Shown here: one piece after another, positions 1 through 15,255 of the stretch
Numbering within the stretch: position 1 is the stretch's first letter
How the letters are laid out: every line of letters starts with the position of its first letter
DNA from: Bacteroidales bacterium
GTDB lineage: Bacteria; Bacteroidota; Bacteroidia; Bacteroidales; B18-G4
Assembly (NCBI GenBank): GCA_032250805.1
Contig: JAVVEM010000008.1
Span: forward strand, 25,774-89,773
Length of the DNA stretch: 64,000 nucleotides
Direction: 5' to 3'
Position numbers and translations under genes: made by a program
Notes under the pieces: model-generated
Seen by the model: the letters and a program-made list of their open reading frames with translations, nothing else
Database searches by the model: none
Told to the model about the DNA's origin: nothing

Positions 1-1190
1 GGCTCCACAGCCCTTTCATACATGCCGTTTGTCCAGGCAATGGTCATGCCGTAATTGGTAACGGGCACGCCGGCCTCAATGGCTTCCTGCAGCCTGTTGC
101 TCAATTGTTTTTTTGTGATCATACAGCCACCGCATTGCACAACCAGCGAATATTCGCCAATGGGCCGCGGAAATTCTTCGAGCCCGGCAACAATGTCGAA
201 CATCAGATCTTTACCGGTATGTTTACGCAGCCAGCCGGGGATCTTGTAACGACCGATGTCGTCGCAGTTTACCTGGTGTGTGCATGATTCAAGGATCAGC
301 ACCCGGTCATTGTCTTTGAGCTTGCCAATGGCTGGTGTGCCTTCAAGATAGGCCCTGAAATTTCCCTTGCGGCTTGCCAGCAGCACACTGAAGCCTGTTA
401 AGGGAATATCTTCTGGCACGACCCTGTTCATTTTGTCAAACACCTGGCTGTCGGTAATGGCCAGCTTCGGCTTTATTTTTGTTTTTTTCAGAAATGCTTC
501 AACTTCGGTTTCTTTCAATACAATATTTATACAGTTATTATCAAGCACGTCGCGGATGGCCTGAACCTGAGGCAGGATCATTCTTCCTTCGGGTGCTTCC
601 AGGTCGATCGGCGTGATGAGCATCACAATTTCGCCGGGCTCAAGCAGTGTTCCCAGCAGTGAAGTGCTTGTCCAGGATGATTTTGGCATGAGCCGGATAA
701 TGGCATCCAGCACTTTGTCGATGGCATCGGGCGGGCGGCTGCTGAATTCAATGATCTCGGAACTGAATTTCTCTTTAACCGTTTTGGTCGTAGTGTCAAG
801 AAGCCGTGATTCGTCAGATTTGTTATGAATAAATAGGTAGGGGATGTTATAACGCCTGAATTGTGCGATCAGGCTTTCTTCATATTTCCCTATGGTATTT
901 CGGGCGATGATGATAATGGCCAGGTCGATCGATTTGATCACCTGCATGCTTTTACTCACCCTGAGCGTTCCCAGTTCGCCACGGTCGTCAATACCGGCAG
1001 TATCGATCATTACGGCGGGGCCGATGCCAAAGATCTCGACCGATTTTTTTACCGGATCGGTGGTTGTTCCTGCTTTGCCGGATACAATGGCGATGTCCTG
1101 GCCTGCGATGGCATTGATAAATGAGCTTTTTCCGTTGTTGCGCCGCCCAAAGATGCCAATATGCGGTTTATGTTCTCTCCCTTTTTTCAT
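1..1190 (-). CDS. hydF: [FeFe]-hydrogenase maturation GTPase HydF (C-terminus cut by window edge)
   Basis: Absent from the ORF track because it runs off the window. My translation of the minus strand from ATG (1190-1188) reads MKKGREHKPHIGIFGRRNNGKSSFINAIAG... It has GTPase G1 (GRRNNGKS), G3 (DTAG) and G4 (NKSD) motifs, plus C-terminal CTH...QCGGC cluster-binding cysteines. The start overlaps the hydE stop (ATGA at 1187-1190). Confidence 0.85.
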   Translation of the reverse strand, partial: MKKGREHKPHIGIFGRRNNGKSSFINAIAGQDIAIVSGKAGTTTDPVKKSVEIFGIGPAVMIDTAGIDDRGELGTLRVSKSMQVIKSIDLAIIIIARNTIGKYEESLIAQFRRYNIPYLFIHNKSDESRLLDTTTKTVKEKFSSEIIEFSSRPPDAIDKVLDAIIRLMPKSSWTSTSLLGTLLEPGEIVMLITPIDLEAPEGRMILPQVQAIRDVLDNNCINIVLKETEVEAFLKKTKIKPKLAITDSQVFDKMNRVVPEDIPLTGFSVLLASRKGNFRAYLEGTPAIGKLKDNDRVLILESCTHQVNCDDIGRYKIPGWLRKHTGKDLMFDIVAGLEEFPRPIGEYSLVVQCGGCMITKKQLSNRLQEAIEAGVPVTNYGMTIAWTNGMYERAVE

Positions 1191-2290
1191 TGTTCCGGTT
1201 TTGTGTTTTCAATGCGGTTATGGTAGTGTTTTGAGTCGCCCCATAAATGATAGTTGACACGCATTCCCATACCGGCAATATTTTCTTCCAGGCCGGCCAG
1301 GCTTGCTTCTGCCATATCAGTAAATATGGGCTTGCCTTCGTACAGCATGTAATTGCATGCCTGCGCCGGTGGGGTGATGTTTGGCATGAATATGTTGGCG
1401 CCGGAGGCGATGGCTTTGATCCTTCCGGCCGGATCGAGGGTGTTCATGGCCGTTGACGCGGCCATGTTGATGTCTTTCATCATGATCCGCATCAGTGCTA
1501 TCATCTTCAGGCTGAGATCAATCCGCTCTTCATCCGAAGGGATGTCGGCACATCTGCGGGCCAGAGGGGTGTCGGCATGTGGAATATAGGGGCCCATTCC
1601 CACCATATCGATATTGAAATCACGCATAAAGATCAGGTCGTCGGCAAGATGTCCGGTGTGCTGGAAAGGCAAGCCTATCATCACTCCCGTACCTGTTTGG
1701 TATCCCAGCCGCTGAAGTGTCCTGAGTGCTTCCACACGCTTGTCGAAGCTGTGAAATTCGTCTCTGGGGTGCAGCTTCCCGTAAAGGCTCCGGCTGCTGG
1801 TTTCAATCCTTAAAAGGTAGCGATGGGCCCCGGCTTCATACCATTCGCGGTATATGTCTTCGGATTGTTCTCCGCAACTAAGGGTGATGCCCAGTTCATG
1901 ATTGCTCAGTGATTTTATTTCCCTGAGCAGCTCAGTGATGCTGCTGGTAAATGTCCGGTCGCTGCGCTCGCCGCTCTGGATCACCACTGAGCCGAAGCCT
2001 TTTTTCCAGGCATATTCTGCCGCATGAAGCACTTCCCGGGTATTGAGCAGGTATCGTCCTGACTTATTGTTCCCGCTCCTGATGCCACAATAGTAACAGT
2101 TTTTCCGGCAGATATTCGATAATTCGATCAATCCCCTGAGGCTTACCTGCCTGCCCACATATTTTGCGGCAACCCTTCTTGCACGGGCAAAAAGCAATTG
2201 CCGCTCATCTTCATCCTGTGTTTGCAATATGTAGATGAGGTCCTCCCGGCTCAGGCTTTCTTTGCGGAGTATGCTTTCTGTTGTTTTCAT
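1187..2290 (-). CDS. hydE: [FeFe]-hydrogenase H-cluster radical SAM maturase HydE
   Basis: 367 aa with radical-SAM motif CRKNCYYCGIR and biotin-synthase-like architecture. It sits between hydG and hydF. Confidence 0.9.
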   Translation of the reverse strand: MKTTESILRKESLSREDLIYILQTQDEDERQLLFARARRVAAKYVGRQVSLRGLIELSNICRKNCYYCGIRSGNNKSGRYLLNTREVLHAAEYAWKKGFGSVVIQSGERSDRTFTSSITELLREIKSLSNHELGITLSCGEQSEDIYREWYEAGAHRYLLRIETSSRSLYGKLHPRDEFHSFDKRVEALRTLQRLGYQTGTGVMIGLPFQHTGHLADDLIFMRDFNIDMVGMGPYIPHADTPLARRCADIPSDEERIDLSLKMIALMRIMMKDINMAASTAMNTLDPAGRIKAIASGANIFMPNITPPAQACNYMLYEGKPIFTDMAEASLAGLEENIAGMGMRVNYHLWGDSKHYHNRIENTKPEQ

Positions 2291-2310
2291 CGGTTTTGGC
2301 GTTTTTCCGG

Positions 2311-3750
2311 TCAGAAATAGAGGTCGCGTTTTCCTGCTTTAACTAATTCTATCCGCTTGATCAATTCATTCTTAAGCTGGGGGGCGATTCCTCCATTCAG
2401 GTTATTATTGATGATGGCCCAGCCTTTTTCGGCCTGCTTCGCTGTGGCATAATCCTCGAGATATTCGGCCAGGGTAAGGATGGCATTGGGTGTGCAGAAC
2501 TTCTTTATGAAACCCGGCACCGAAAATTCCATAAAATGTTCGCCGGTTCTTCCTTTCCGGTAGCATGCCGTACAAAATGAGGGCAGGTACTCATGTTCAA
2601 GCAACTCGTCGATGACCTGGGCGAGGCTGCGTGTGTCGTGGATCAGGAATTGTTCTTTATTCAGATCCTGTATGGCTTGCAATTCCTTTTCACCGGCATA
2701 GGCGCCCATTTCCAGTTTTGTGCCGGCATCGATCTGCGAAACCCCGAACGCAAGCACTTCCCTGCGGATATGCTCAGGCTCGCGGGCAGTGAGGATCATC
2801 CCCGTATAGGGCACGGCCAGCCGGAGAATGGCCACCAGCTTAACAAAGTCCTTATCGCTCACGCCATATTTAGTGTCGATCTCATATTCGGCGGCATCCT
2901 GCAAGCGGGGAAAGGAAATGGTGTGCGGGCCAACCTGGTAGCATGCTTCGAGATGGTTGGTATGCCGCACCAGCGCCATCACCTCAAATTTCCAGTCATA
3001 CAGGCCAAAGAGCGCACCGATCCCCACATCGTCGAGGCCGGCTTCCTGTGCACGGTCGAGGGCCGTTAAGCGGTAATTGTAATCTTTTTTCTTTCCCCCC
3101 CGGTGATACCAACTGTATGCTTCGGGGTGGTAAGTTTCCTGAAAAACCTGGTATGTGCCGATGCCGGCTTCTTTTACAATCCTGAAGCCTTCAATATCGA
3201 GCGGGGCGGCATTGATGTTCACTCTCCTGATCTCGCCCCGGCCTTTGCGCACATCATACACTGTCTTTACCGAATCGGCAATAAATTCGGGTGTATACTC
3301 CGGGTGCTCGCCATATACCAGGATGAGCCTTTTTTGCCCTTCCTGCTCCAGGGCTTCAACATTTTTTATTAATTCGTCGCGGCCCAGAGTTTTTCTTATG
3401 GCATCCTTGTTCGATGCCTTAAATCCGCAGTATTTGCAGTTGTTAATGCAATAATTTCCTACATATAAGGGGGCAAACAACACAATTCTGTTTCCATATA
3501 CTTTTTGTTTCAGCCTGCGTGCGCCTTCCTTTATTTCTTCGACGAGGGCGGGGTCGTTGGTGTTCAGGAGCACGGCCACCTCCTGCATGGAGAGACGCTG
3601 TTTGTTCAGCGACTTTGCTATGATCTTTTTCACTGCAGAGCCATCTGTTACGGCTGTGTCGAGCATATCCCGGATCTCACCGGCATCGATGAAATTTTTC
3701 ATGGGCTCGTCCTTGATCGCGTATTGTTCGGGTGTGAACTTCATGGCCAT
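2311..3750 (-). CDS. hydG: [FeFe]-hydrogenase H-cluster radical SAM maturase HydG (ThiH-like tyrosine lyase)
   Basis: 479 aa with radical-SAM motif CINNCKYCGF. A C-terminal auxiliary cluster motif (CTACYRKGRTGEHF...C) is typical of HydG. Sits in hydGEF context. Confidence 0.9.
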   Translation of the reverse strand: MAMKFTPEQYAIKDEPMKNFIDAGEIRDMLDTAVTDGSAVKKIIAKSLNKQRLSMQEVAVLLNTNDPALVEEIKEGARRLKQKVYGNRIVLFAPLYVGNYCINNCKYCGFKASNKDAIRKTLGRDELIKNVEALEQEGQKRLILVYGEHPEYTPEFIADSVKTVYDVRKGRGEIRRVNINAAPLDIEGFRIVKEAGIGTYQVFQETYHPEAYSWYHRGGKKKDYNYRLTALDRAQEAGLDDVGIGALFGLYDWKFEVMALVRHTNHLEACYQVGPHTISFPRLQDAAEYEIDTKYGVSDKDFVKLVAILRLAVPYTGMILTAREPEHIRREVLAFGVSQIDAGTKLEMGAYAGEKELQAIQDLNKEQFLIHDTRSLAQVIDELLEHEYLPSFCTACYRKGRTGEHFMEFSVPGFIKKFCTPNAILTLAEYLEDYATAKQAEKGWAIINNNLNGGIAPQLKNELIKRIELVKAGKRDLYF

Positions 3751-3767
3751 GTGTATTGTGAGTTAAA

Positions 3768-4916
3768 CTATACTGTTATCGTTGTATTGATCTTTGCAGG
3801 CTTAAGCCTCACGGTAAACGTGCTTCCCTTTTCCGGTTCACTCGCCACAGTGATGGTTCCGTCGTAGTTGTTATTTACAAGCTTCTTTACGATAGAGAGC
3901 CCAAGGCCGCTGCCGCTGATGTTTCTTGTTTTATTGTTTTTTATCCTCACAAATTCCTGGAAAAGCATCGAAAGTTCTTCATCGTTCATGCCGATACCCG
4001 TATCCTGAACCGTAATGATGAGCTGTTCTTTGTGTTGTTTAATGCTGATGTTCACCTCGCCATCCTCTTTGTTGTATTTCACGGCATTGGATATGAGGTT
4101 GTTGAAAATGATCTCAAGCTCGTTGGCATCGGCATTAAAATTCAGTTCCTTCGGGGCATGAAGATAAATTTTTACATTTTGCTGTATAGCCATGGGCTCG
4201 ATGGTATCCATCGCCATTCTTGCAACGGCAACAACATCCGACTCCTTTACCTGCCGTATCTTTTTTCCGGATTCAAGCTTGGTGAGGTCGAGCATGTCCA
4301 TGATCAGGTTGCGCATACCTTTAATGCGTTCAATCGAACGGTCGATCATGGTTTCATAATCTTCAATGTTATCGCCCGCCTGTTTGTCTTTCATAATGTT
4401 GAGGTATCCTTCAACTGCATTGATGGGCGATTTTAGTTCGTGCGAAAGTACCGACAGGAACTGGAAGCGCACCTGTTTGCCGGCTTCGTCGAGCTGCCTG
4501 GTCATCCTTTTCAGGAAGAGGTGCTTGGTAATATTGTCGATCGATGCCCTTAATTCGTCAGGAGTAAAGGGCTTGGGAACGAAATTGTATGCACCGTTGT
4601 TGGTGGCTTTAACTGCCAGGTCGAGCGAAGCGTATGAGGTGATCATCATTACGATGGCATCGATATTGTTTTTCCTGATATATTCAAGCACTTCAATGCC
4701 ATCCATGCCGGGCAGCTTATTGTCGAGCAGGACAATATCCGTTTCGCCGCGGTTTAATACCTCAATGGCGTATTCTCCTGTTTCGGCTTCTGTCAGGGCG
4801 AAATCAAAATCCTCCTCCATGAAGGGGTATCCAACAGAATAGTTCCTTAAAATGCGGGAGATGCCTGACCTGATCCCCGGTTCATCATCTACAACAAGTA
4901 TATTGAGCGTAGCCAT
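3768..4916 (-). CDS. Hybrid receiver-histidine kinase (REC-HisKA-HATPase, no sensory domain)
   Basis: N-terminal receiver (ILVVDDEPGIR...VLLDNKLPGMDG...KP), H-box SHELKSPINAVEGY, and a C-terminal ATPase with GSGLGLSIVK. Confidence 0.85.
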   Translation of the reverse strand: MATLNILVVDDEPGIRSGISRILRNYSVGYPFMEEDFDFALTEAETGEYAIEVLNRGETDIVLLDNKLPGMDGIEVLEYIRKNNIDAIVMMITSYASLDLAVKATNNGAYNFVPKPFTPDELRASIDNITKHLFLKRMTRQLDEAGKQVRFQFLSVLSHELKSPINAVEGYLNIMKDKQAGDNIEDYETMIDRSIERIKGMRNLIMDMLDLTKLESGKKIRQVKESDVVAVARMAMDTIEPMAIQQNVKIYLHAPKELNFNADANELEIIFNNLISNAVKYNKEDGEVNISIKQHKEQLIITVQDTGIGMNDEELSMLFQEFVRIKNNKTRNISGSGLGLSIVKKLVNNNYDGTITVASEPEKGSTFTVRLKPAKINTTITV

Positions 4917-4927
4917 AGTGGTTTGAT

Positions 4928-5323
4928 TTAAAGTTTTAACAATTTGTTGATCTCGCGTTCAAGCTGATCTTTTCTTATGCCTTTTTCAAGGAACTTGTCG
5001 GCGTGGATCCACTTTTTATCTGCTTCAGTGTCGAGACTGAAATTCAGACCTGTTTCGGCGGTGACCGCCGAGGCAATGATGATGGGCAGGTGCGGGTATT
5101 TTTTCTTCATTTTGTAACTGAGGATAAATCCGCTGTCTTTTTTTTCCATCATCAGGTCGATAATGGCCAGGTCGGGGGCTGAGTCTGCAATGGATTCTTC
5201 GGCCTCTTTTTCGCCCTGTGCCGTTCTTACTTCAAAGCCCATACTTTTAAGCTGTAGCTCGAGCTGGGCAAGATAATCCATGTCGTCGTCAACGATGAGG
5301 ATGTGTTTTTTTGTGTTGTTCAT
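4928..5323 (-). CDS. Stand-alone response-regulator receiver protein (CheY-like, no output domain)
   Basis: 131 aa with ILIVDDDMDY...LAIIDLMME...IIIASAV...FLEKG. This is a receiver fold only. Confidence 0.8.
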   Translation of the reverse strand: MNNTKKHILIVDDDMDYLAQLELQLKSMGFEVRTAQGEKEAEESIADSAPDLAIIDLMMEKKDSGFILSYKMKKKYPHLPIIIASAVTAETGLNFSLDTEADKKWIHADKFLEKGIRKDQLEREINKLLKL

Positions 5324-5341
5324 AACTTAATCTCCTATAAC

Positions 5342-7327
5342 TTATTTGCCTCTCGGCAACGTAATTGTAAATGTTGTTCCTGTTTGACCTTTAGCGGGGT
5401 CGGCATTCGAGTCGACCGAGATCTTTCCTTTATGCATTTTTACGATCCCGTAAACCAGGGGCAGTCCCAGGCCGGTACCTTTACCAACTTCCTTGGTGGT
5501 AAAGAAGGGTGTAAACAGCTTGTCCATGTGCTTTTCGGGGATGCCATGCCCGGTATCGCTGATCATGATCTTCACACTGTGATCGTTGCCTTCCAGCCTG
5601 ATGCCCAGTTCGCCGCCTTCAGGCATGGCTTCAACGGCATTTTTTTCAAGATTGGTAAGCACCTGCATCATTTGTTCCCGGTCGATACTTGCCGTCAAAT
5701 GATCCGTTTCTACCCTGAAGCTGACCTTCACATTCCTGTCGTGTATGATGCTGCTGATGCTGTCGCTCAAAAATTCTTTCAGATCGGTTTCCTGAAGTCT
5801 TACCTGGTTTTTCCGGGCAAAGTTCAGCAGTCCTCCAACAATATGCTTGCAGCGCTCCGTTTGTTCTACAATGAGCTCGAGGTCTTTATAAACGGGATTT
5901 TCTTTTGATGTTTCATCTTTCAGGATGTTGCTGTACATGGTGATCACCCCGAGCGGGTTGTTCAATTCGTGGGCAATGCCTGCCGATAGTTGGCCCATGT
6001 GGGCAAGCTTTTCAGAGTGTCTGAGTGCTTGCTGGGTATTGGCGAGCTCTTCATTGCTCAGGTTAAGCTCTGCTACCGAGCGGTGAAGCTTTTCAATGGT
6101 AAAGGGCAGGCACATTTCGTCTTCGGCGAGTCCTTCGAAGATGGCAATGGCATGTTCGCGGCATGTTTCGTAACCGCATGCCCCACAGTTCAGGTGGTCA
6201 TTATCATTATATTTTCCCATCGAATGGAGGATGGCCCTGATTTTATCCTTATCAGGTTCCGCTACGCGGCGGTCTTCGGCAATAAATTCCCTCGACAGAT
6301 CCAGTTTATCGTACTTCATCATGTTTTTCTTCCATTCATCCCCGTCGAGCTGTTCAAGCTTTATTCTGGCGTAATTGCTCACGCGCAGCGTTCGTTCAAA
6401 TTTTTTGCCTCCACACGATAATCCCGGGCCCATAATGCATCCGTCGCAGCACAACAGCTCGAGGTGCTGATCTCTGATCACGCCGTTTTCAAATTCTTTG
6501 ATGGCTTCCCTGAAGTTTTCCTTTCCTTCGGCCACCAGCACATTGCCATGGCAAATGTCGTCATCGTGGTCGGTGGTCTGCAACAGACCCCTGCTAACAG
6601 GGAAGATGGCCCCTTTGCCGGAAGTGGGAGCATCAAACCCGCCATTTCCGTCCTTTTGTTCGTTAATGCCGGCTTGCTCCAGCATTCCTCGCAGCTCCCT
6701 GAAGGTAATGGCTTCGTCAATTTCATTGCTTTCGGCTTTCTTGGCAATGCACGGACCTACAAAAACGATCTTCACGTCCTTTCCGTATGTTTTCTTTATC
6801 ATCCTGGCAGTTGCCGTCATGGGCGAAACGATGGGCGCCAGCGATTTTGTGAGTTCCGGATGGTAATACTCAATATACCTGACGATTGCCGGGCAGTCGG
6901 AAGAGATGTAATTCTTTCCGTGGCGGTTTTTCAACAGCTTGCTGTACTCCTTTGCTACCAGGTCGGCACCAAACGAAACTTCAATGACTTTATCAAAGCC
7001 CAGGGCGCGTATCATGCCCGCAATGGCCGCAGGGTTGCTTAATTCTTTGAATTCGGCCGGGAAACTGGGAGCCAAAATGGCAAAAACCAAGTGATCTTTA
7101 TTCAACAATTCATTAACCACATCACTGGTTTCCAGAAACACCTTGGCTCCCTGGTTGCATACTTTTATGCAGTTTCCACAACCGATGCAACGTTCGCTGA
7201 CTACCTCAGCCTGTCCGTTCATGATCCTGATTGCTTTTGCAGGGCACTCGCGCACACAGGTAAAACACATCCTGCACCTGTCCTTTACGGTGAATACCAA
7301 CTGTCTGTGTTTTATATCTGTGTTCAT
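5342..7327 (-). CDS. Ferredoxin + [FeFe]-hydrogenase H-cluster-like domain + CxxCxxxC FeS domain fused to a histidine kinase (putative sensory hydrogenase-kinase)
   Basis: aa 18-57 carry two CxxCxxCxxxCP ferredoxin motifs. H-domain motifs are SSDCPAIV (6881-6904), GPCIAKKAE (6731-6757) and ELLCCDGCIMGPG (6422-6460), which align with TSCCPAW / MPCTAKKFE / EVMACPGGCIAGGG of the adjacent HydA. NCGACGYETC is an RnfB-type FeS domain. H-box is AHELNNPLG. The ATPase has GTGLGLPLV. Confidence 0.8.
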   Translation of the reverse strand: MNTDIKHRQLVFTVKDRCRMCFTCVRECPAKAIRIMNGQAEVVSERCIGCGNCIKVCNQGAKVFLETSDVVNELLNKDHLVFAILAPSFPAEFKELSNPAAIAGMIRALGFDKVIEVSFGADLVAKEYSKLLKNRHGKNYISSDCPAIVRYIEYYHPELTKSLAPIVSPMTATARMIKKTYGKDVKIVFVGPCIAKKAESNEIDEAITFRELRGMLEQAGINEQKDGNGGFDAPTSGKGAIFPVSRGLLQTTDHDDDICHGNVLVAEGKENFREAIKEFENGVIRDQHLELLCCDGCIMGPGLSCGGKKFERTLRVSNYARIKLEQLDGDEWKKNMMKYDKLDLSREFIAEDRRVAEPDKDKIRAILHSMGKYNDNDHLNCGACGYETCREHAIAIFEGLAEDEMCLPFTIEKLHRSVAELNLSNEELANTQQALRHSEKLAHMGQLSAGIAHELNNPLGVITMYSNILKDETSKENPVYKDLELIVEQTERCKHIVGGLLNFARKNQVRLQETDLKEFLSDSISSIIHDRNVKVSFRVETDHLTASIDREQMMQVLTNLEKNAVEAMPEGGELGIRLEGNDHSVKIMISDTGHGIPEKHMDKLFTPFFTTKEVGKGTGLGLPLVYGIVKMHKGKISVDSNADPAKGQTGTTFTITLPRGK

Positions 7328-7361
7328 TATATTTCGTATGATAAATGTTTAATGCAATCCT

Positions 7362-9086
7362 TTACTTCATTACTTCTCTTTCTGTATAATTTGTGTGCAG
7401 CAACTCATGGCTTTTATGCCCGCAGGGTTCTCCAAGGAAAGTGTTGTATATCTCAATGATATCAGGGTTTTTATGCGAAACTTTTATGCTTTCGCCTTCA
7501 TCGATATCATAGAGGCTTTTCATCCTGGCAAGGATATCTTCCTTTTCGGCACCTATTTTTTGTCCTCCGCCGGCGATACATCCTCCCGGGCAGGCCATCA
7601 CTTCAATAAAATGGATGTCGTTTCTTCCGGCCCTGATCTCGTCGAGGAGTATCCTTGCATTATTCAGTCCGCTAACCACTGCGATGCCAAGCTCCAGGTC
7701 GCCGATCTTTATGCTTGTTTCTTTTCTTCCGTTCATCCCCCTGATCTGCGGAATCCGGAATGCCGTGAGCTCTTTTCCTGTGATCTTATTGTAGGCAGTG
7801 CGGATGGCTGCTTCCATAACTCCGCCGGAGGCTCCAAACAGCTTTCCTGCCGAACTGCGGAATCCCATGGGAGAGTCGGCCAGCTCTGGTTCAAGCTTGT
7901 GGATGTCGACACCGTGCATGCGAATAAAATCAGCCAGCTCACGGGTGGTAAGCACGGCATCAACATCGCTAATGCCGTGGCGGGTCATCTCATTGCGCTG
8001 TGCTTCGAATTTTTTCGCCGTACACGGCATAATTGATACGGAGTAAATATTCTCGGGTTTAATGTTTTCCTTTTCGGCATAATAGCTTTTAATCACTGCG
8101 CCGAGCATTTGTTGCGGTGATTTGCAGCTTGAAATATTCGGGAGGAAATCCGCGGCAAACTCCTCTGCATATTTTATCCAGGCAGGGCAGCAACTGGTGA
8201 TCATTGGCAGTGTGCCTCCGTTTGATACGCGCTGGATCAGCTCCGCCGATTCTTCTATAATGGTGAGGTCGGCCGAAAATGTTGTGTCGAACACCGTTTT
8301 GAATCCTATCTTTCGCAGTGCGGCATTCAAAATGCCGTTGATGTCTTTTCCGGGCTCCATGCCGAAGGCTTCTGCCAACGATACCGATATGGCAGGGGCA
8401 TACTGAACGACAAGTGTTTTGGAAGGATCGTTCATGGCCTCTGTGATCTCGGCGAAATGATTCTTCTCGGTGAGTGCGCCTGTAGGGCAAACCATGATGC
8501 ATTGTCCGCAATTCACACAACTGGAAGTGTTCAGTCCGCTGTTGAAAGCTGTTCCGATCACGGTATTGCTTCCGCGTCTGATAAAGTCGATGGCCGAAAC
8601 CCCCATCACCTCTTCACACACCCTTATGCATCTTCCGCATAGAATACATTTGTCGGGGTCGCGCACAATGCTGGGGCTCGACTGGTCGAGGTTATAATTG
8701 TTTTTCACGCCGTGGATGCGGCGCTCGGTAACGTTCAGTTCTTTCGAAAGCCCCTGCAGCTCACAGTTTCCGTTTCTTACACAATACAGGCAATCGTCGG
8801 GATGGTTCGAAAGCAGCAGCTCAACAATGGTTTTGCGTGATTCGATCACCTTATTGGAGTGCGTGTTTATTTTCATTCCATCGGCTACCGGAAACGAGCA
8901 GGAAGAAACCAGCTTGCCGCTGTCTTCAAGTTCTACCACACACATCCTGCACGATCCGCTGGGAAACATATCTTTCATATGGCAGAGGGTGGGTACTTTT
9001 ACGCCATTTCTTTCAAGCACATCCAGAATGGTTTCACCGTTTTCGGCGGCCACTTTTTTCTTGTTTATTACGATTTCAAAGCTCAT
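7362..9086 (-). CDS. hydA: [FeFe]-hydrogenase catalytic subunit HydA (HndD-like, NAD(P)/ferredoxin-linked type)
   Basis: 574 aa with an N-terminal plant-type 2Fe-2S domain, HPDDCLYCVRNGNCELQ, and two 4Fe-4S ferredoxin motifs. H-cluster motifs are TSCCPAW, MPCTAKKFE and EVMACPGGCIAGGGQ. A C-terminal small-subunit-like tail is present. Confidence 0.92.
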   Translation of the reverse strand: MSFEIVINKKKVAAENGETILDVLERNGVKVPTLCHMKDMFPSGSCRMCVVELEDSGKLVSSCSFPVADGMKINTHSNKVIESRKTIVELLLSNHPDDCLYCVRNGNCELQGLSKELNVTERRIHGVKNNYNLDQSSPSIVRDPDKCILCGRCIRVCEEVMGVSAIDFIRRGSNTVIGTAFNSGLNTSSCVNCGQCIMVCPTGALTEKNHFAEITEAMNDPSKTLVVQYAPAISVSLAEAFGMEPGKDINGILNAALRKIGFKTVFDTTFSADLTIIEESAELIQRVSNGGTLPMITSCCPAWIKYAEEFAADFLPNISSCKSPQQMLGAVIKSYYAEKENIKPENIYSVSIMPCTAKKFEAQRNEMTRHGISDVDAVLTTRELADFIRMHGVDIHKLEPELADSPMGFRSSAGKLFGASGGVMEAAIRTAYNKITGKELTAFRIPQIRGMNGRKETSIKIGDLELGIAVVSGLNNARILLDEIRAGRNDIHFIEVMACPGGCIAGGGQKIGAEKEDILARMKSLYDIDEGESIKVSHKNPDIIEIYNTFLGEPCGHKSHELLHTNYTEREVMK

Positions 9087-9106
9087 TGATCTTTGTTGTT
9101 TAAGGA

Positions 9107-11056
9107 TTAATTGATCATTACAGCATCAAACTTGCATACTTCTTCACAGGTGCCGCAGCCAATACATTTATTGTCGACAATAAAGTGGGGGCTTTTTCTT
9201 GTCCCGATGATGGCTGCGGTAGGGCATTTCTTCGCGCAGAGCGTACAGCCTGTACATTTATCCACATCGATGGAGAAGGTCCTGAGCTCAGTACAAACGC
9301 CCGCGGGGCATTTTCTTTCGAAGATGTGTTCTTCGTATTCGTTCCTGAACCAGCGCAGGGTGCTCAGCACTGGATTTGGTGCTGTTTGCCCCAGTCCGCA
9401 CAGCGAAGTGTCTTTGATCACCTGTCCGAGTTTTTCGAGTTGCATAACGCCTTTAAAGCGCTCCAGGGCATCGGCATTGTTGCCATTGGGTTTATGGCTG
9501 ATGCTTTCGAGAATTTCAAGCATCCTTTTGGTACCCTCCCGGCAGGGGATGCACTTGCCGCAGCTTTCGCGCTGAATAAAGTCCATAAAGAACTTCGCCA
9601 CATCCACCATGCAGGTATCTTCATCCATGACCACCAGGCCTCCGCTGCCCATCATGGCACCGGCACTGATCAGCGATTCATAATCGATCTGGATGTCGAG
9701 GTTGGCTTCGGTGATACATCCCCCCGAAGGACCCCCGATCTGTACGGATTTAAATTTCTTGCCGTTGGGTATTCCTCCGGCAATGGTAAAGATGATCTCT
9801 CTTACGGTGGTTCCCATGGGGATCTCAACGAGGCCCGTAAGGGCTACTTTTCCGGAGAGCGCAAATACTTTCGTACCCTTGCTGTTTTCTGTACCGATGG
9901 CGGCAAACTTCTCTTCACCCATCTCCGCGATCGAAGGTATGTTTGAGAGCGTTTCAACATTATTAATAATTGTAGGCTTGCCAAAGAGTCCTTTTACGGC
10001 AGGAAAGGGAGGCCTGGGCCTGGGCATGCCCCGCTTGCCTTCAATGCTGTGGATAAGGGCTGTTTCTTCACCGCATACAAAAGCGCCCGCACCCATTTTA
10101 ATGATCAGCTCCAGACTGAAACCGCTCTGATATATGTTTGCACCGAGAAGTCCGAAATCGCGGGCCTGTTGAATGGCTTCTTTCAGCCTGGCAATGGCCA
10201 GTGGGTATTCGGCACGGATATACACATAGGCTTTTGATGCTCCGATAGCGTATGCTGCAATGGCCATGCCTTCGATGAGCCTGTGCGGATCACCCTCGAT
10301 CACAGCCCTGTCCATGAATGCGCCGGGATCACCCTCATCGGCATTGCAGATCAGGTATTTCTGGCTGGCTTTTTCCCTGTATGCAAATCCCCATTTTCTT
10401 CCTGTGGGAAAGCCCCCGCCACCGCGACCGCGCAAGCCGCTCTTTTCTACCATTTCGCAGACTTCCAGAGGATGCTTTTGTGCAATGATATTTAAAAAAT
10501 TACGATAGCCTCCATGAGCAATATATTCTTCGATCGAGGCCGGGTTGATGAGGCCGCAGTTTTTAAGTACAAGCCTGCTCTGAGGCGCAAAGAATGGGTG
10601 TTCGTCAATGTAGGGCACCTGATCATATGCTTCCAGCGCCAGGCTTCTGAACTGGCCTATGGCGGCTTCCTTATCGGTTTCTCCTGAAAAGGTTTGCTCC
10701 AGCAGTGATCCGGCCTGGCCGGCAGTAACATTTTTATAGGATATCCGGTTTTTCCCCGGAAGCTGTATGTCGACGATGGGCTCTGCCGAACACAGGCCGA
10801 TACATCCTACGCGGATCACTTCCGCATCGATATTGTTTTTGCTTGTCCAGCTTTCGATGGCCGCAATGGTCTTGTCCGCTCCGGCACCCAGACCGCAGGT
10901 TCCGGCTCCTACATAAATACGTGGTTTGGACGTATCTTCACGACGTAGCATTCTTAAACTGTTCCTGTCGGCAGGGGAGAGGTCTTCCGTGTCAACACGC
11001 TGATCCAGTAAGGTCCTTAACACTTCTGCATATTGGTATTTTTTGGTATTGCTCAT
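9107..11056 (-). CDS. hydB: NuoF-like flavoprotein subunit HydB of a multimeric [FeFe]-hydrogenase
   Basis: 649 aa with an N-terminal thioredoxin-like 2Fe-2S domain, FMN/NADH motif GRGGGGFPTG, and ESCGKCIPCREG. The C-terminus has 2x[4Fe-4S] (CTGCTLCAKKCP, CIGCGTCEEVC). The start overlaps the hydC stop (ATGA at 11053-11056). Confidence 0.9.
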   Translation of the reverse strand: MSNTKKYQYAEVLRTLLDQRVDTEDLSPADRNSLRMLRREDTSKPRIYVGAGTCGLGAGADKTIAAIESWTSKNNIDAEVIRVGCIGLCSAEPIVDIQLPGKNRISYKNVTAGQAGSLLEQTFSGETDKEAAIGQFRSLALEAYDQVPYIDEHPFFAPQSRLVLKNCGLINPASIEEYIAHGGYRNFLNIIAQKHPLEVCEMVEKSGLRGRGGGGFPTGRKWGFAYREKASQKYLICNADEGDPGAFMDRAVIEGDPHRLIEGMAIAAYAIGASKAYVYIRAEYPLAIARLKEAIQQARDFGLLGANIYQSGFSLELIIKMGAGAFVCGEETALIHSIEGKRGMPRPRPPFPAVKGLFGKPTIINNVETLSNIPSIAEMGEEKFAAIGTENSKGTKVFALSGKVALTGLVEIPMGTTVREIIFTIAGGIPNGKKFKSVQIGGPSGGCITEANLDIQIDYESLISAGAMMGSGGLVVMDEDTCMVDVAKFFMDFIQRESCGKCIPCREGTKRMLEILESISHKPNGNNADALERFKGVMQLEKLGQVIKDTSLCGLGQTAPNPVLSTLRWFRNEYEEHIFERKCPAGVCTELRTFSIDVDKCTGCTLCAKKCPTAAIIGTRKSPHFIVDNKCIGCGTCEEVCKFDAVMIN

Positions 11057-11523
11057 GACTGATCTTCAGATTTTCTGTAGTTATCAATGATCTGGTCGAT
11101 GCCGGCAGCATCTACCCTGGCATAAAATTCGCCATTAATACATATCACAGGAGCCAGGCCGCAAGCCCCGATGCAAGCCACAACTTCAAGGCTGAAAAGG
11201 CCGTCTCTACTGGTCTGACCCGCTTTGATCCTTAAATTGTCCTGGATTTTTTCCAGTACCGTTGCCGAGCCCAGCACATGGCATGCCGTACCCCGGCATA
11301 CCTGGATGTGGTATTTCCCGAGTGGTTCGAACCTGAACTGGTTGTAAAAGGTCGCAACACCAAAGATTTTGCTGGCAGGCATCCGTAAATGCCTGCCAAC
11401 TTTTACCACGGAACTTTCCGACAGGTAGCCCTCCTTTTCCTGTATGGCCTGCAGTATGGGGATCAACTGATCCTTTCCTGCGCCGGCATTTGCCTCGAGA
11501 ATGATATCTGTTGCTTCTTTCAT
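11053..11523 (-). CDS. hydC: NuoE-like 2Fe-2S subunit HydC of a multimeric [FeFe]-hydrogenase
   Basis: 156 aa with CRGTACHVLG...VACIGACGLAPV, the thioredoxin-like [2Fe-2S] pattern of NuoE/HndA. Confidence 0.9.
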   Translation of the reverse strand: MKEATDIILEANAGAGKDQLIPILQAIQEKEGYLSESSVVKVGRHLRMPASKIFGVATFYNQFRFEPLGKYHIQVCRGTACHVLGSATVLEKIQDNLRIKAGQTSRDGLFSLEVVACIGACGLAPVICINGEFYARVDAAGIDQIIDNYRKSEDQS

Positions 11524-11559
11524 AATAATGATGGATTGGGGAGGATGAACACTGATGGA

Positions 11560-12081
11560 TTAATGGGCTGTAGTTGCCTTCGCTTTTTTATCGAGCAGTA
11601 ATTGTATCTCTGCAAGCAACTTTTCTGCTTCAACCGGTTTCCTTAAAAATCCGTCTACTTTCAGCCAAACCGAAGGGCCTTCCTCGCTTTTGTAGTCAAC
11701 CCCTGCATTGCCACTTACTACATCTTTAATAAGCAATACATCAAGTTCGCGATAGTTGGGGTCCTGGCGGAATTCCCTGGCCATTTCCTGAACACTCGGT
11801 TTGGTGGTTGTAAGAATATCGATAGAAGAAAGCATCATCACCGGCATTTTATTAAAATCAGGGTTTTCGCTAAGTTCCTTTGCCATTTCAAAGCCTTCAA
11901 AGTGAGTGGTCATCATCACATCGAGAATGGCGAGGTCGGGTTTTTCGGTCCAGGCTTTTTTAATGCCTTCGATCTTGTCGTTGGCCGAAACTACTTCGTA
12001 TCCGTTATTTGTAAGGATAGCTTTTACGACGGTGATCACATCAATGTCGTCGTCTACGATCAGAATTTTCTTTGTTTCCAT
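11560..12081 (-). CDS. Stand-alone receiver protein with a large insertion between beta4 and beta5
   Basis: 173 aa with ILIVDDDIDV...LAILDVMM...MMLSS...FLRKP. The Ser85/86 to Lys148 spacing is about 62 residues, against about 22 in CheY. It is the first gene of the hydrogenase block. Confidence 0.7.
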   Translation of the reverse strand: METKKILIVDDDIDVITVVKAILTNNGYEVVSANDKIEGIKKAWTEKPDLAILDVMMTTHFEGFEMAKELSENPDFNKMPVMMLSSIDILTTTKPSVQEMAREFRQDPNYRELDVLLIKDVVSGNAGVDYKSEEGPSVWLKVDGFLRKPVEAEKLLAEIQLLLDKKAKATTAH

Positions 12082-12138
12082 GGTGTTTTTTGTTTAGGTG
12101 ATTTATGATAAAGTTTACGATGCTAAATTACCATGCTA

Positions 12139-12159
12139 ACAAGGTGCTGCACAAGGTGC
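12139..12159 (-). promoter_or_regulatory. Direct repeat ACAAGGTGC x2 (12-bp register) in the upstream region of the hydrogenase block; candidate operator
   Basis: acaaggtgc occurs at 12139-12147 and 12151-12159. On the minus strand this reads GCACCTTGT-GCA-GCACCTTGT and also forms TGCAC-CTT-GTGCA. It lies 58-78 bp upstream of the ATG at 12081. Confidence 0.3.
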
Positions 12160-12306
12160 AAAAGTCGTGATTTGAGGGTGTAAGGAAGTATGAAAATGTA
12201 TGGTAAAAAGAGGAATTACGGAAAGGAAAAACCAGTAAAAAAACGCAATTACAGCAATTCCCGGTCCCCGGGGGTGATAAACGGCAATCCGAAAACGCTT
12301 TTCTGA

Positions 12307-12966
12307 TTATATTGTAACGAGCTTATTTTTAATGGCATACGAGAGCAGGCTGATCGTACTTTTGCAGTTTGTTTTGGATAGGAGGTTGGATTTATGCCCA
12401 ACCACGGTGCGTTCGCTGATAAAGAGTTCTTCTGCCATCTCGCGGTTGTTGAGCCCGTCGCAAATCAACTGCAGTACCTCCTGTTCGCGTTTGGTAAATT
12501 GCAGCTCGCTGCCTTCTTCTTTTTTTTGTTCGGAGAACTTTTTGCCGAAGTACGACCAGAGTTCGGGCGAGTAATAGGTGTTTCCTGCGGCAATGGATTG
12601 AAGCGCCTGGTCGAGGAGTTCCCTGGTAATGTTCTTCAGCAGAAATCCATGTACACCGATATCCATCATCTTGTCGATATATTCCTCATCATCAAACATG
12701 GTAAGGATCACGATCTTCAGGTCGGGGAATTCCCTGATGGCGATCTCGCTGGCTTCAATGCCATTCATAATGGGCATCTGCAGGTCGAGCAGGACCAGGT
12801 CGGCAGGTTTTTCCTTCTGGAGTTCGATAAACTCCTTTCCGTTGGAAGCTTCGCCCGTAACAGTGGCATATTTCAGCCTGTTAACGACCATTTTTAGTCC
12901 ATTCCTGAAAAATTCGTGATCGTCAACGATGATAATTTTGAGCGTATTCTCCGTGTCCTTTATCAT
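12307..12966 (-). CDS. NarL/LuxR-family response regulator (REC + LuxR HTH)
   Basis: 219 aa with IIIVDDHEFF...LVLLDLQMP, and a C-terminal FTKREQEVLQLICDGLNNREMAEELFISERTVVGHKSNLLSK. Confidence 0.9.
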   Translation of the reverse strand: MIKDTENTLKIIIVDDHEFFRNGLKMVVNRLKYATVTGEASNGKEFIELQKEKPADLVLLDLQMPIMNGIEASEIAIREFPDLKIVILTMFDDEEYIDKMMDIGVHGFLLKNITRELLDQALQSIAAGNTYYSPELWSYFGKKFSEQKKEEGSELQFTKREQEVLQLICDGLNNREMAEELFISERTVVGHKSNLLSKTNCKSTISLLSYAIKNKLVTI

Positions 12967-12981
12967 GTGGCAAAGATAAGA

Positions 12982-14295
12982 CTATTTTGCATATCTGCCG
13001 CTTAGTTTTACCTCAACAACGACAAGGGTACCGGCTTCTTTCATGGAATGGATCTTATAGGTGCCATGGATTGATTCGAGGCGGCTGATAATATTTTTCA
13101 GTCCCATGCCAGAGTTCTCAGTATTCAGCACCTTATCAAGGTCGAAACCTATGCCGTCGTCCATGTATGTGAGCTGCAGAATGTCATCGAACTTTTCCAG
13201 GTAGATCTCTATCTTTCCTGCCCCGGAATGCTTTATGCTGTTATTCAGCAGTTCGGTAACCACCCTGTAAAGCACAAGTTCAATGGTTTGGTCGAAACGT
13301 TCCTGTATCGATGCTTCGTAAAGGATGTTGATCTTCTGGCTCAGGTTAATTTTCTTGCAGAACGATTCAACGGCTTTGATCAGCCCAAAGTCGATGATCA
13401 CCCGTGGCGTAAGCAGGTTGGCGATGGTACGGGTTGAGGTGATGGCCTCGTCGAGGATCTCATTCGTTCTCTTGAGAAATTCTGTCCTTTCCTCCATACT
13501 CAGGTCATCCGACTCCAGCTCGTTCACATATAATTTAATTGTCGACATGAGTGGCCCCAGATCGTCGTGTATCTCCCGGGCAATGCGTTCACGCTCTTTT
13601 TCCTCGGCATTGATCACTGCTCTCAGGATCTTGCGTTCCAACTGTTTTCGTTCGGTAATATCCCTGGCGATCGACAATATGGCCTTTTGGCCCTGATAGT
13701 CGATGAGGCGGCTTTTAACTTCAAGCGAAAGGATGCGTCCGTGCCTGGTACGATGTTCGGTTTGGTAGGTATGCTGACCACGTGCCAGGATGAGCTTCAG
13801 GTTTTCATCAACGGCTTCGGTGTATTTCTGTGTTTTGATATCCCTGAAATTCATCCGCTTCATCTCTTCAGCGCTGTAACCCATTGAGTCGATGGCAACC
13901 TGATTAATTTCCAGTAAATTGCCTTCTGTGTCAGCCAGGAATATTTCGTCGCTGCTGTGGTGAAACAAGGTTGAAAAGCGTTTTTCCGATTCTTCGCGCT
14001 CGCGCTCGGTTTTATGGAGGGCGTGGAGAATCCTTGCAATGCCGATCACGGCGATGGCCATAATAATGGATGTGGCAATTCCAAGCCATTCGTCGAGCAG
14101 GATCAGCTCAGGCGAGAGTTCTTTTCCCAAATGTTGCCACAGGTCGACCACCCTGCGAACACCCATGAATATCAGGGCCACGGCAATGAGCATCCACGCG
14201 ACCTTGCTCAGGGCATAGCGCAACAGCCAAAGAGCACCTGCAAAGGCAATAAGCTGCAGCAGAATGGAAACAATAAGTGCATTTGTCGTAAGCAT
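12982..14295 (-). CDS. Membrane sensor histidine kinase (TM-PAS-HisKA_3-HATPase, NarX/DegS class)
   Basis: Hydrophobic N-terminal helices, a PAS-like segment, H-box REIHDDLGP, and an ATPase with MDDGIGF...GMGLKNI. Confidence 0.85.
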   Translation of the reverse strand: MLTTNALIVSILLQLIAFAGALWLLRYALSKVAWMLIAVALIFMGVRRVVDLWQHLGKELSPELILLDEWLGIATSIIMAIAVIGIARILHALHKTEREREESEKRFSTLFHHSSDEIFLADTEGNLLEINQVAIDSMGYSAEEMKRMNFRDIKTQKYTEAVDENLKLILARGQHTYQTEHRTRHGRILSLEVKSRLIDYQGQKAILSIARDITERKQLERKILRAVINAEEKERERIAREIHDDLGPLMSTIKLYVNELESDDLSMEERTEFLKRTNEILDEAITSTRTIANLLTPRVIIDFGLIKAVESFCKKINLSQKINILYEASIQERFDQTIELVLYRVVTELLNNSIKHSGAGKIEIYLEKFDDILQLTYMDDGIGFDLDKVLNTENSGMGLKNIISRLESIHGTYKIHSMKEAGTLVVVEVKLSGRYAK

Positions 14296-14401
14296 GATGC
14301 AATAATAATTATTGCAAATGTATTATTTTTTCCGGGGCACCTGATATGCCTGGATCGACTGTCGTTCCGTGAAGATGATCAGATTAAACCCATCAAAATA
14401 A

Positions 14402-15022
14402 CTACCTCAGCACTTTTTTCCACAGGTAGGTCGCCAGGCTTTGACCGGCTTTGGCATAGGCTTCGCCAATGCGCATCTCGGCATCGAAATCGCCGGCAAA
14501 CAGCCCATTACCCGGAACCTTCGCCATACTTATCCTGGCCACAATATTTTCAGGGGCTTCAGTTTCAACAAAAATGGCTTCAACATTGATCGATGCATTT
14601 TTTCGCGAGATCCCGATGTTAAACCCGGGCTCCAAAAAAGTTGTCTTCAGAATGAGGGTATAATCGGCATTGGTATAGGGCCCGGTCATAATATTTGCGT
14701 CTTTGCTCAGAAAAACCGTATTCATCAACTCCTCAAATCTGCGTTGATAGGTGTTTTCCTTGTCGGCATGCCACTCTGCCTCCCAGTCGTCGCCCTTTCC
14801 GGGCTCATCCTCATTATAATCGTTTTTCTTTTTTTCAATGTATTCAGCTTCGGTGGCGAATTTTCCCACGCCAAAGTCGCTGAAATCGTATTCCACATTG
14901 AGCTCATCGATGCCCTGGATAAAATCAAGGCTTCCTTCCTCCAGTGTGATCTTCTGGGCATGAACGTGAACTGCGAAAAAGGCCACAAGGGCCAGGCTGA
15001 TCATGATCTTTAATGTTTTCAT
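14402..15022 (-). CDS. Secreted hypothetical protein
   Basis: 206 aa with signal peptide MKTLKIMISLALVAFFAVHVHAQ. I do not recognise the family. Confidence 0.6.
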   Translation of the reverse strand: MKTLKIMISLALVAFFAVHVHAQKITLEEGSLDFIQGIDELNVEYDFSDFGVGKFATEAEYIEKKKNDYNEDEPGKGDDWEAEWHADKENTYQRRFEELMNTVFLSKDANIMTGPYTNADYTLILKTTFLEPGFNIGISRKNASINVEAIFVETEAPENIVARISMAKVPGNGLFAGDFDAEMRIGEAYAKAGQSLATYLWKKVLR

Positions 15023-15255
15023 GGTTTTTTGGTTTGTTTATCAGGGTGAATAATATTTTATAGGTTAAGCAGACTTTTGAATATGCTAATTTACGCATTT
15101 TTTATCTGTTTGGCAATACCCGGCTCGTGCTTTTTATACAAGCAAAAAATCAGCTTTTTTGATTAATTAACAATTGCTTAAGAAAAAAATATCGATCTTT
15201 GCCGCTCACTTGAAAAGCAGCATAGCCGGAATTCATTTCCGGCCTGGGAAAGCAG

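Follow-up and report, generated by a model that had tools for sequence, protein, structure and literature searches.

How fermentative anaerobes sense the partial pressure of hydrogen and switch between electron sinks is still open, and to our knowledge no signalling output has been demonstrated for the [FeFe]-hydrogenase-based sensors studied so far (TmHydS, TamHydS and R. albus HydS). A locus of a Bacteroidales bacterium (assembly GCA_032250805.1) raises the question whether such an output could be encoded next to its sensor. Within a stretch of 64,000 nucleotides (contig JAVVEM010000008.1, positions 25,774 to 89,773 of the forward strand; referred to as the window), a histidine kinase fused to a hydrogenase domain, termed HydS-HK, is encoded between the structural genes of the [FeFe]-hydrogenase HydABC and the genes of the maturases HydG, HydE and HydF. 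It appears fairly probable that this locus represents a self-contained hydrogen-metabolism module, in which a bifurcating HydABC is combined with an H2-sensing HydS-HK, its signalling partners and the maturases.

Genes and domains of the window were called from a table of open reading frames (ORFs) and a Pfam scan of the encoded proteins; all window genes discussed below lie on the minus strand. The block occupies positions 1–12081 and comprises ten genes in the order REC173, hydC, hydB, hydA, sensor kinase, REC131, REC-HK, hydG, hydE and hydF. Counted from hydF upward, the intergenic gaps amount to −4, 20, 17, 11, 18, 34, 20, −4 and 36 bp, and at both overlapping junctions the stop codon of one gene and the start codon of the next share an ATGA (hydC/hydB and hydE/hydF). 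The ten gene calls of the initial annotation, its spacing (−4 to 36 bp) and the two overlaps were thus reproduced from the ORF list and the Pfam matches. However, the limit it had set at position 12306 is too narrow, since a LuxR-type regulator gene and a PAS kinase gene continue upstream on the same strand and are part of the subtype described below.

The enzyme itself shows the complete set of subunits. HydC (11053–11523) is a NuoE-like [2Fe-2S] subunit (Pfam 2Fe-2S_thioredx, E = 4e-49), and HydB (9107–11056, 649 residues) is a NuoF-like flavoprotein with the domains Complex1_51K, NADH_4Fe-4S and two Fer4. The catalytic subunit HydA (7362–9086) contains Fer2_4, NADH-G_4Fe-4S_3, Fer4, Fe_hyd_lg_C and Fe_hyd_SSU. 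Its motifs PMITSCCPAW, SIMPCTAKKFE and EVMACPGGC correspond to the canonical TSCCP, MPCxxKKxE and ExMxCxxGC, and the proton pathway is intact, with equivalents of E279, E282, R286 and S319. HydA scores 814.5 bits against NF040763, 'NADH-dependent [FeFe] hydrogenase group A6' (cut-off 765), and its best match of solved structure is HydA1 of the bifurcating enzyme of A. woodii (8a6t_A, 593 bits), with 7q4v_A reaching 547 bits and CpI 459 bits. For HydA as well as HydB, the bifurcating enzymes of A. woodii and T. kivui are the best solved-structure matches, with full-length alignment. HydB, which possesses an N-terminal extension and a C-terminal 2×[4Fe-4S] domain, was aligned to residues 8–596 of the 599 residues of T. 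kivui HydB and to residues 13–624 of the 626 residues of T. maritima HydB, and full-length matches to other Bfu-type B subunits were found too. Compared with the bifurcating HydABC enzymes of T. maritima, A. woodii and T. kivui (Bfu), all three subunits match over their full length, all cofactor domains are present and no difference was detected at the sequence level, so that bifurcation is predicted here. On these grounds HydABC is assigned to the bifurcating-type [FeFe]-hydrogenases (HydDB A3, NCBI 'group A6', Bfu), in agreement with the NuoE/NuoF-associated HydABC proposed at the outset, and would act as an NAD- and ferredoxin-linked (bifurcating or confurcating) hydrogenase.

At the other end of the block, the maturation system is complete, since all three equivalog models are matched above their curated cut-offs. 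The radical-SAM maturases HydG (2311–3750; Pfam Radical_SAM and BATS) and HydE (1187–2290) reach 495 bits with TIGR03955 (cut-off 312) and 326 bits with TIGR03956 (cut-off 255), respectively, and the H-cluster maturation GTPase HydF (1–1190; Pfam MMR_HSR1, HydF_dimer and HydF_tetramer) reaches 482 bits with TIGR03918 (cut-off about 325). The last few C-terminal residues of HydF lie past the edge of the window. In the closely related locus L081, situated on a 1.42-Mb contig, the hydF orthologue encodes 403 residues and is followed by genes of the opposite strand.

Situated between these two sets of genes, HydS-HK (5342–7327, 661 residues; Pfam Fer4, Fe_hyd_lg_C, FeS, HisKA and HATPase) is composed of a 2×[4Fe-4S] region, an H-domain, a Cx2Cx4Cx16C motif, a HisKA domain with the phospho-acceptor H453 and a HATPase domain. 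When HydS-HK was aligned to HydA of the same window, the three motifs read SSD144-C145-P, G191-P-C193-xxK196 and E-L-L292-C-C294-DG-C297. The H-cluster cysteines C145, C193, C294 and C297 and the equivalent of K358 are all retained, with the last two cysteines spaced CxxC and not CxxxC. Replacements are found at the proton donor, C299 of CpI (D144), and at M353 (G191), M497 (L292), E279 (Y128), E282 (L131) and S319 (A164). The H-domain is followed by C381-x2-C384-x4-C389-x16-C406, a motif present in all 120 closest homologues, and a Cx2Cx4Cx16C motif in this position characterises the sensory classes M2e and M2f (PMC8163306). Judged by these motifs, the core plan of a sensory-type [FeFe]-hydrogenase (group C/D, M2e/M2f) is present in HydS-HK.

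Throughout 78 orthologues from several phyla, the residues C145, C193, C294, C297, C381, C384, C389, C406 and H453 are invariant, which argues for a functional cofactor site. The same holds true for the N, G1 and G2 boxes of the kinase (N563, D591, G593, G595, G617, G619 and G621), whose overall sequence resembles ZraS and AtoS. Pfam detected no PAS domain in the window sensor, and the iron-sulphur motif is followed by HisKA and HATPase. The fused family is evidently old and diverse: about 40 clusters of a protein library, built with a 50% identity threshold, can be aligned to the complete fused protein, the most distant of them at about 31% identity. An AlphaFold2 (AF2) model of HydS-HK reached a mean predicted local distance difference test score (pLDDT) of 75, with values of 85–95 in the H-domain.

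Studied proteins of this plan are TmHydS of Thermotoga maritima (group C, M2f) and TamHydS of Thermoanaerobacter mathranii (group D, M2e), which share with HydS-HK the core of 2×[4Fe-4S], H-domain and Cx2Cx4Cx16C, have likewise lost the proton pathway and are likewise encoded beside a bifurcating HydABC (PMC8163306, PMC10055695). The replacement of M353 by Gly is found in TmHydS as well, and that of M497 by Leu in TamHydS. However, a PAS domain forms the C-terminus of TmHydS, and TamHydS lacks a signalling domain, whereas the window sensor carries a fused HisKA-HATPase module. Further differences concern the C299 position, which is Ala in TmHydS and Asp in the window sensor, the spacing of the L3 cysteines, which is CxxC here, unlike CxxxC, and the gene neighbourhood: PP2C, Ser/Thr-kinase or AraC-type proteins accompany TmHydS and TamHydS, in contrast to the two-component proteins encoded next to HydS-HK.

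The altered active site allows for another explanation, namely that HydS-HK senses the cellular redox state, via reduced ferredoxin or HydABC, through its N-terminal [4Fe-4S] clusters, with the H-domain as a vestige or structural scaffold. Of the canonical proton pathway little is left, with Tyr for E279, Leu for E282 and Ala for S319; most of the related clusters carry the NADH sensor Rex, which makes the redox state a relevant signal; and the authors describing proteins of HydDB group C1 (see below) in Hydrogenedentota questioned hydrogen sensing because standard motifs were not found (PMC11406978). The invariant motifs of the 78 orthologues provide an answer to this doubt, since they are modified rather than missing. 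Moreover, a vestigial site is hard to reconcile with H-cluster cysteines, a K358 equivalent and motif residues that do not vary across phyla, maturases are often co-encoded, and TmHydS and TamHydS, which carry the same substitution pattern, accommodate a functional H-cluster and show reactivity towards H2 (PMC8163306, PMC10055695). A pure redox sensor thus does not appear likely.

The opposite deviation, a sensor that is in fact a working hydrogenase or a fourth subunit of HydABC, is suggested by the residue at the C299 position. Among the 120 closest homologues 113 carry Asp here, as do 53 of the 78 orthologues, and Asp has been reported as the sole C299 substitution that keeps activity in prototypical [FeFe]-hydrogenases (PMC10055695), so that it could restore proton delivery, with the kinase reporting turnover. 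Only 34 bp separate hydA from the sensor gene, and a metabolic or subunit role has been raised for the proteins of Cloacimonadota and Hydrogenedentota (PMC8542988, PMC11406978). However, the other residues of the proton pathway and both active-site methionines are replaced. Outside of Bacteroidota the C299 position is occupied by Ser, Thr, Ala, Asn or Pro; the Asp is therefore clade-specific and not needed for a conserved function. In addition, a complete kinase, invariant in its catalytic boxes, is fused to the hydrogenase domain, which points to signalling as the primary role, and a catalytic or subunit role of HydS-HK is considered quite improbable. In the window, the codons for residues S142–P146 of the sensor, which include this Asp, are located at positions 6886–6900 (minus strand).

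If HydS-HK is a signalling protein, its immediate partners should be looked for among the neighbouring two-component proteins. REC131 (4928–5323, 131 residues; Pfam Response_reg) is a single-domain response regulator; its 77 orthologues share D56 and K114 without exception and have either Thr or Ser at position 85. REC-HK (3768–4916, 382 residues) combines an N-terminal receiver (residues 6–126) with a HisKA domain (residues 152–217) and a HATPase domain, and in 74 orthologues D65, T93, K115 and H159 are invariant. With phospho-acceptor His and Asp residues as well as catalytic boxes in place, HydS-HK and its partners classify as two-component proteins. Because of its position in front of HisKA, the receiver of REC-HK reads as an input of the kinase and not as the output of a relay. 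The term 'four-protein phosphorelay' used in the initial annotation does not hold: neither an HPt nor a Spo0B-like domain was detected by Pfam (E ≤ 0.001) in the ten proteins of the block and nine proteins of the upstream flank (among them a LuxR-type regulator and a PAS kinase), the block contains no hybrid kinase with a C-terminal receiver, and only the sensor, REC131 and REC-HK are conserved. A two-tier kinase cascade or a branched two-component pathway fits better than a His-Asp-His-Asp phosphorelay.

The fourth of the proteins counted into that relay is REC173 (11560–12081), encoded by the first gene of the tight block. While it does contain a receiver domain, as proposed, it is not a plain receiver: the Pfam match is limited to positions 1–85 of the 111 profile positions, and a conserved insertion of about 55 residues (about 86–143) is located between strands β4 and β5, at the usual output face. 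The phospho-acceptor residues D54, S86 and K148 are invariant in 33 homologues, as is P149, in which the insertion is highly conserved as well. In the AF2 model (pLDDT 86.6) the insertion forms a small α/β subdomain. The closest receivers of solved structure cover the receiver core only, with a query-normalised template modelling score (TM-score) of about 0.6, and the single-domain ones among them comprise no more than 113–130 residues.

Upstream of REC173, and separated from it by 225 bp, lies the gene of a LuxR/NarL-type response regulator (12307–12966; Pfam REC and GerE helix-turn-helix), which is the only DNA-binding signalling protein of the neighbourhood. Another 15 bp upstream follows the gene of a membrane-anchored PAS-HisKA_3-HATPase kinase (12982–14295; Pfam), whose translation displays three hydrophobic N-terminal segments. 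This PAS kinase is presumably the cognate partner of the LuxR-type regulator; the two genes adjoin each other in L001, L005, L013, L038, L041, L048 and L081 as well. The regulator was also considered as the default direct target of HydS-HK and was rejected as such, since it adjoins a HisKA_3 kinase, its usual type of partner; cross-talk from HydS-HK to the regulator is possible.

From gene content, residue conservation and synteny, all of which were directly observed, we infer the following route for hydrogen sensing and phosphotransfer. Hydrogen would react slowly with the H-cluster of the sensor and reduce it, and the redox state would then pass to the accessory clusters, notably the Cx2Cx4Cx16C cluster beside the dimerisation helix of the kinase, thereby altering autophosphorylation of H453. 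The phosphoryl group could be transferred to REC131 and to the N-terminal receiver of REC-HK, the kinase of which would form a second tier. The presence of hydG, hydE and hydF in the same unit would be accounted for as well, given that the [2Fe] subcluster is required by HydA and by the sensor alike.

Several points weigh against this interpretation. The weakest link of the mechanism is its output: in every phylum examined, the conserved trio of HydS-HK, REC131 and REC-HK comes without a DNA-binding output. HisKA-type kinases seldom pair with regulators of the NarL/LuxR type, which leaves the link from HydS-HK to transcription open. In the AF2 monomer the linker and the dimerisation and histidine phosphotransfer (DHp) region (residues 418–462) are of low confidence, so that no conclusion on the coupling between iron-sulphur motif and kinase can be drawn. 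No terminator was seen between the LuxR-type gene and REC173, which makes the transcript boundaries uncertain, and the candidate promoter element upstream of REC173, TAATTTAG, is close to the −7 box of Bacteroidetes without being an exact consensus. To these add the doubt about hydrogen binding in Hydrogenedentota mentioned above and the fact that the literature searched contains no experimental work on any protein of HydDB group C1, to which HydS-HK is assigned below.

Is the vicinity of enzyme, signalling and maturase genes meaningful at all? Genomes were scanned with the sensor alignment as query, using one genome per species; 508 relatives were confirmed and 80 loci were examined. The ORFs of the relatives were assigned by BLASTP against the window proteins, and the denominators given are loci with room for the respective gene. 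The gene directly upstream of the sensor is hydA in 67 of 74 loci, preceded by hydC and hydB in 57 of 63. Immediately downstream of the sensor, 68 of 76 loci have a REC131-like gene (which some loci of Planctomycetota and Myxococcota carry upstream instead), and REC131 is followed by REC-HK in 62 of 71, the gap between the two having a median of about 3 bp. Within 10 kb downstream, 43 of 63 loci contain a maturase gene. The loci belong to Bacteroidota, Planctomycetota, Myxococcota, Calditrichota, Marinimicrobia and Hydrogenedentota. The block of the window minus REC173, in the order hydC-hydB-hydA-sensor-REC-REC/HK-hydE-hydG-hydF, is found in Calditrichota, Marinimicrobia and some Planctomycetota, and L081, with a sensor 77% identical to HydS-HK, displays the exact order of the window for twelve genes from PAS kinase to hydF. 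With the core order kept in most of the 80 loci, the arrangement is not a chance adjacency. By the same token, the layout is not unique, as had been assumed, but occurs in at least six phyla.

This synteny also bears on the most sceptical explanation, according to which enzyme, signalling and maturase genes are mere neighbours that are independently transcribed and regulated, the signalling proteins having nothing to do with hydrogen. In its favour, the maturase genes directly adjoin REC-HK in just 12 of 63 loci and are encoded on the opposite strand in some, and scans for consensus sequences cannot exclude internal promoters. On the other hand, in six phyla or more hydA, the sensor gene, REC and REC/HK follow one another in this order, separated by median gaps of about 3–35 bp, and the sensor itself contains a hydrogenase domain. 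In the window, the gaps of 11–36 bp are, by their length, too short to leave room for intergenic promoters, and the exact Bacteroidetes −7 consensus TAnnTTTG is absent from the sense strand of positions 1–12306, where 4–6 copies would be expected (Poisson p about 0.003–0.012). An association without functional meaning is therefore very improbable.

With respect to transcription, a single promoter upstream of REC173 most likely drives all genes from REC173 through hydF, and the most economical reading adds a separate PAS-kinase/LuxR unit upstream, possibly with read-through into the block. The 225-bp intergenic region (12082–12306, minus strand) would then be the likely promoter or operator region of the REC173-hydF unit. 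Its proximal part of about 170 bp, including TAATTTAG, CACCTTGTGC and TTTTTTACTGGTTTT, is conserved with L081, whereas the distal part beside the stop codon of the LuxR-type gene is not. A related block, TACTGGTTTTT, and a −7-like box recur in other loci of the REC173 type. Exact copies of TAnnTTTG are located just upstream of the PAS kinase gene (14315–14322, minus strand) and of the LuxR-type gene; both strands of the whole window contain 60 copies, more than 97 of 100 shuffled sequences. The combined −33/−7 pattern of Bacteroidetes had no match in the region. A scan of positions 1–15400 for sigma-70 promoters and intrinsic terminators, with a model ill-suited to Bacteroidota, gave counts as in shuffled sequences; terminator-like sites were at chance level, with one weak site only on the sense strand. 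An Rfam scan of the whole window yielded no RNA family and thus no riboswitch or leader. Co-transcription of the block, as postulated in the initial annotation, is consistent with the tiny gaps, the lack of a terminator excess, the missing sense-strand TAnnTTTG and the conserved 170 bp upstream, and can be called plausible rather than established.

Comparison of the loci further revealed that they differ in the regulator accompanying the conserved core. Rex is an NADH-sensing repressor, and its gene is found in 51 of the 80 clusters (for instance L008:13511–14149, L046:13651–14295, L071:3379–4008 and L052:5093–5788), showing that dedicated control by redox or H2-related signals is the general rule for such clusters. 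The genes after REC-HK in most Bacteroidales loci are rex (Put_DNA-bind_N and CoA_binding), ribF and one of the metallo-β-lactamase (MBL) fold, ahead of hydG, and in phyla other than Bacteroidota rex is situated directly upstream of hydC. REC173, in turn, precedes hydC in 12 of 60 loci, all of them from Bacteroidota, and also in the window and L081. None of these 12 loci contains rex (Fisher's p = 9e-7, a value that is indicative only since the loci are phylogenetically non-independent), and tblastn with Rex gave no match in the 64-kb window. Of the 12 REC173-type loci, 9 encode a LuxR-type regulator, usually together with the PAS kinase, versus 0 of the 68 others. In the REC173 subtype, regulation would thus proceed via REC173 and the PAS-kinase/LuxR-type pair, and in most relatives via Rex instead. 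In other REC173-type loci the maturase genes are ordered G-F-E, as compared to G-E-F in the window and L081.

A search for the Rex box TTGTGAAN4TTCACAA with up to 3 mismatches gave matches at chance level and none in the hyd promoter region. The promoter regions of L011, L016, L018 and L029 share a Rex-box-like palindrome of 18 bp, TTGTGAAAnnAGTAACAA, about 90–110 bp upstream of the REC173-like start codon. These four loci keep the palindrome (columns about 182–199 of alignment A2) with no rex in the cluster, and at the corresponding position the window and L081 carry CACCTTGTGC.

Another variation concerns the sensor itself. In 29 of 60 loci, and not in the window, a divergently oriented PAS-type HydS paralogue is encoded upstream of hydC, which is about 40% identical over residues 15–455 and carries a weak PAS match in place of the kinase; examples are L007:1958–3856 (−), L046:3061–4983 (−) and L056:16609–18459 (+). 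Many genomes would accordingly pair two putative H2 sensors with one HydABC. The possibility that these ORFs upstream of hydC, initially labelled 'S-', are duplicated sensor kinases was rejected, since they are PAS-type HydS paralogues that lack the kinase.

By its architecture and in line with published reports, HydS-HK is placed in [FeFe] group C1, which was named 'histidine kinase-linked (putative)' in HydDB in 2016 (Sondergaard, Pedersen and Greening; PMC5037454). In the window the eponymous kinase and the sensor form one polypeptide, with a further kinase, REC-HK, encoded two genes downstream. Genes of group C1 have been described beside a group A3 or Hnd hydrogenase in Petrimonas mucosa of the Bacteroidales (PMC7768429), with a fused HATPase_c domain beside A3 genes in Hydrogenedentota (PMC11406978), beside a bifurcating hydrogenase in Cloacimonadota (PMC8542988) and next to Rnf in Vallitalea (PMC6163223), and papers from 2024 to 2026 still term C1 proteins putatively sensory (PMC11216029; bioRxiv 10.64898/2026.06.24.733704). 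One of the loci syntenic with the window, L067, is from Hydrogenedentota. The claim of novelty in the initial annotation has to be narrowed in the light of these reports, since the class has had a name since 2016 and the vicinity of C1 to A3 or Hnd genes has been published for three groups. Its statement that no sensory-hydrogenase locus with this layout had been characterised stands, as the literature searched contains no characterised C1 member and no characterised fusion of hydrogenase and kinase. Published descriptions of C1 mostly mention a separate kinase gene or a HATPase domain alone, in contrast to the full HisKA-HATPase fusion of the window. Moreover, the REC and REC-HK partners, rex and maturase genes within the cluster, the REC173/LuxR subtype and the Asp at the C299 position are undescribed in the C1 literature searched. 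The locus is therefore a further member of a named, uncharacterised class, with some subtype features that are undescribed in this literature.

The closest functional analogue, by inferred likeness, are the regulatory [NiFe]-hydrogenases of group 2b, HoxBC-HoxJ-HoxA of Cupriavidus necator and HupUV-HupT-HupR of Rhodobacter. In this class a hydrogenase module of low activity reports H2 to a histidine kinase controlling energy-converting hydrogenases (PMC5665086, PMC5037454). However, the [NiFe] systems belong to an unrelated family with an unrelated metal site, use a separate sensor and kinase in complex and act through a DNA-binding output of the NtrC type, whereas in the window sensor and kinase are one polypeptide, a second kinase tier is present and the core comes without a DNA-binding regulator.

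Combining these features, HydS-HK could be the first [FeFe]-based two-component H2 sensor with an output other than classical transcription, and Bacteroidota could have re-acquired the proton-relay Asp in order to tune the response to H2. Direct binding targets of phosphorylated REC131 or REC173 might be, for instance, HydABC, the PAS kinase or the transcription machinery. Taken as a whole, this combined proposal is speculative and rather unlikely to be correct. The more general assignment as a hydrogen-metabolism module has practical consequences, since with sensor and kinase in one polypeptide and the partners adjacent, input and output of [FeFe]-based H2 signalling become directly testable in vitro. 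Since the module is widespread in Bacteroidota and also present in five or more further phyla, with sediments, digesters and guts as sources, a mechanism would apply to many H2-cycling communities, and a recent report describes an enrichment of group C1 carriers in the microbiomes of Crohn's disease (bioRxiv 10.64898/2026.06.24.733704). The comparative map, with a universal core, Rex- versus REC173/LuxR-containing subtypes and a clade-specific proton-donor Asp, offers concrete hypotheses.

Several further genes were noticed in the vicinity of the core. In the window, a gene for a protein of 206 residues with a signal peptide and no Pfam match (14402–15022, minus strand) is located 106 bp upstream of the PAS kinase gene; L081 contains a gene for 205 residues without a Pfam family near its PAS kinase. 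The rest of the window encodes ordinary chromosomal genes, for example DnaB, a succinyl-CoA-synthetase-like protein and LpxR. Among the relatives, rex is followed by ribF (FAD synthetase/riboflavin kinase) and an MBL-fold hydrolase gene at L008:14153–15905 and L046:14359–16171, and ribF may link flavin supply to the flavin mononucleotide (FMN)-containing HydB in Bacteroidales loci. In a locus of Myxococcota, a single ORF directly upstream of the sensor kinase (L061:8616–9953, +) combines an N-terminal receiver with Form_Nir_trans, a formate/nitrite transporter domain, and in one of Planctomycetota a lyase gene of the fumarase/aspartase family is inserted between hydG and hydF (L071:15691–17097, +). 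Finally, the HydB ORFs at L070:4520–7765 and L071:4421–7738, read from stop to stop, comprise 1082–1106 residues as compared to 649 in the window, which suggests an extra fused HydB domain in some Myxococcota and Planctomycetota.

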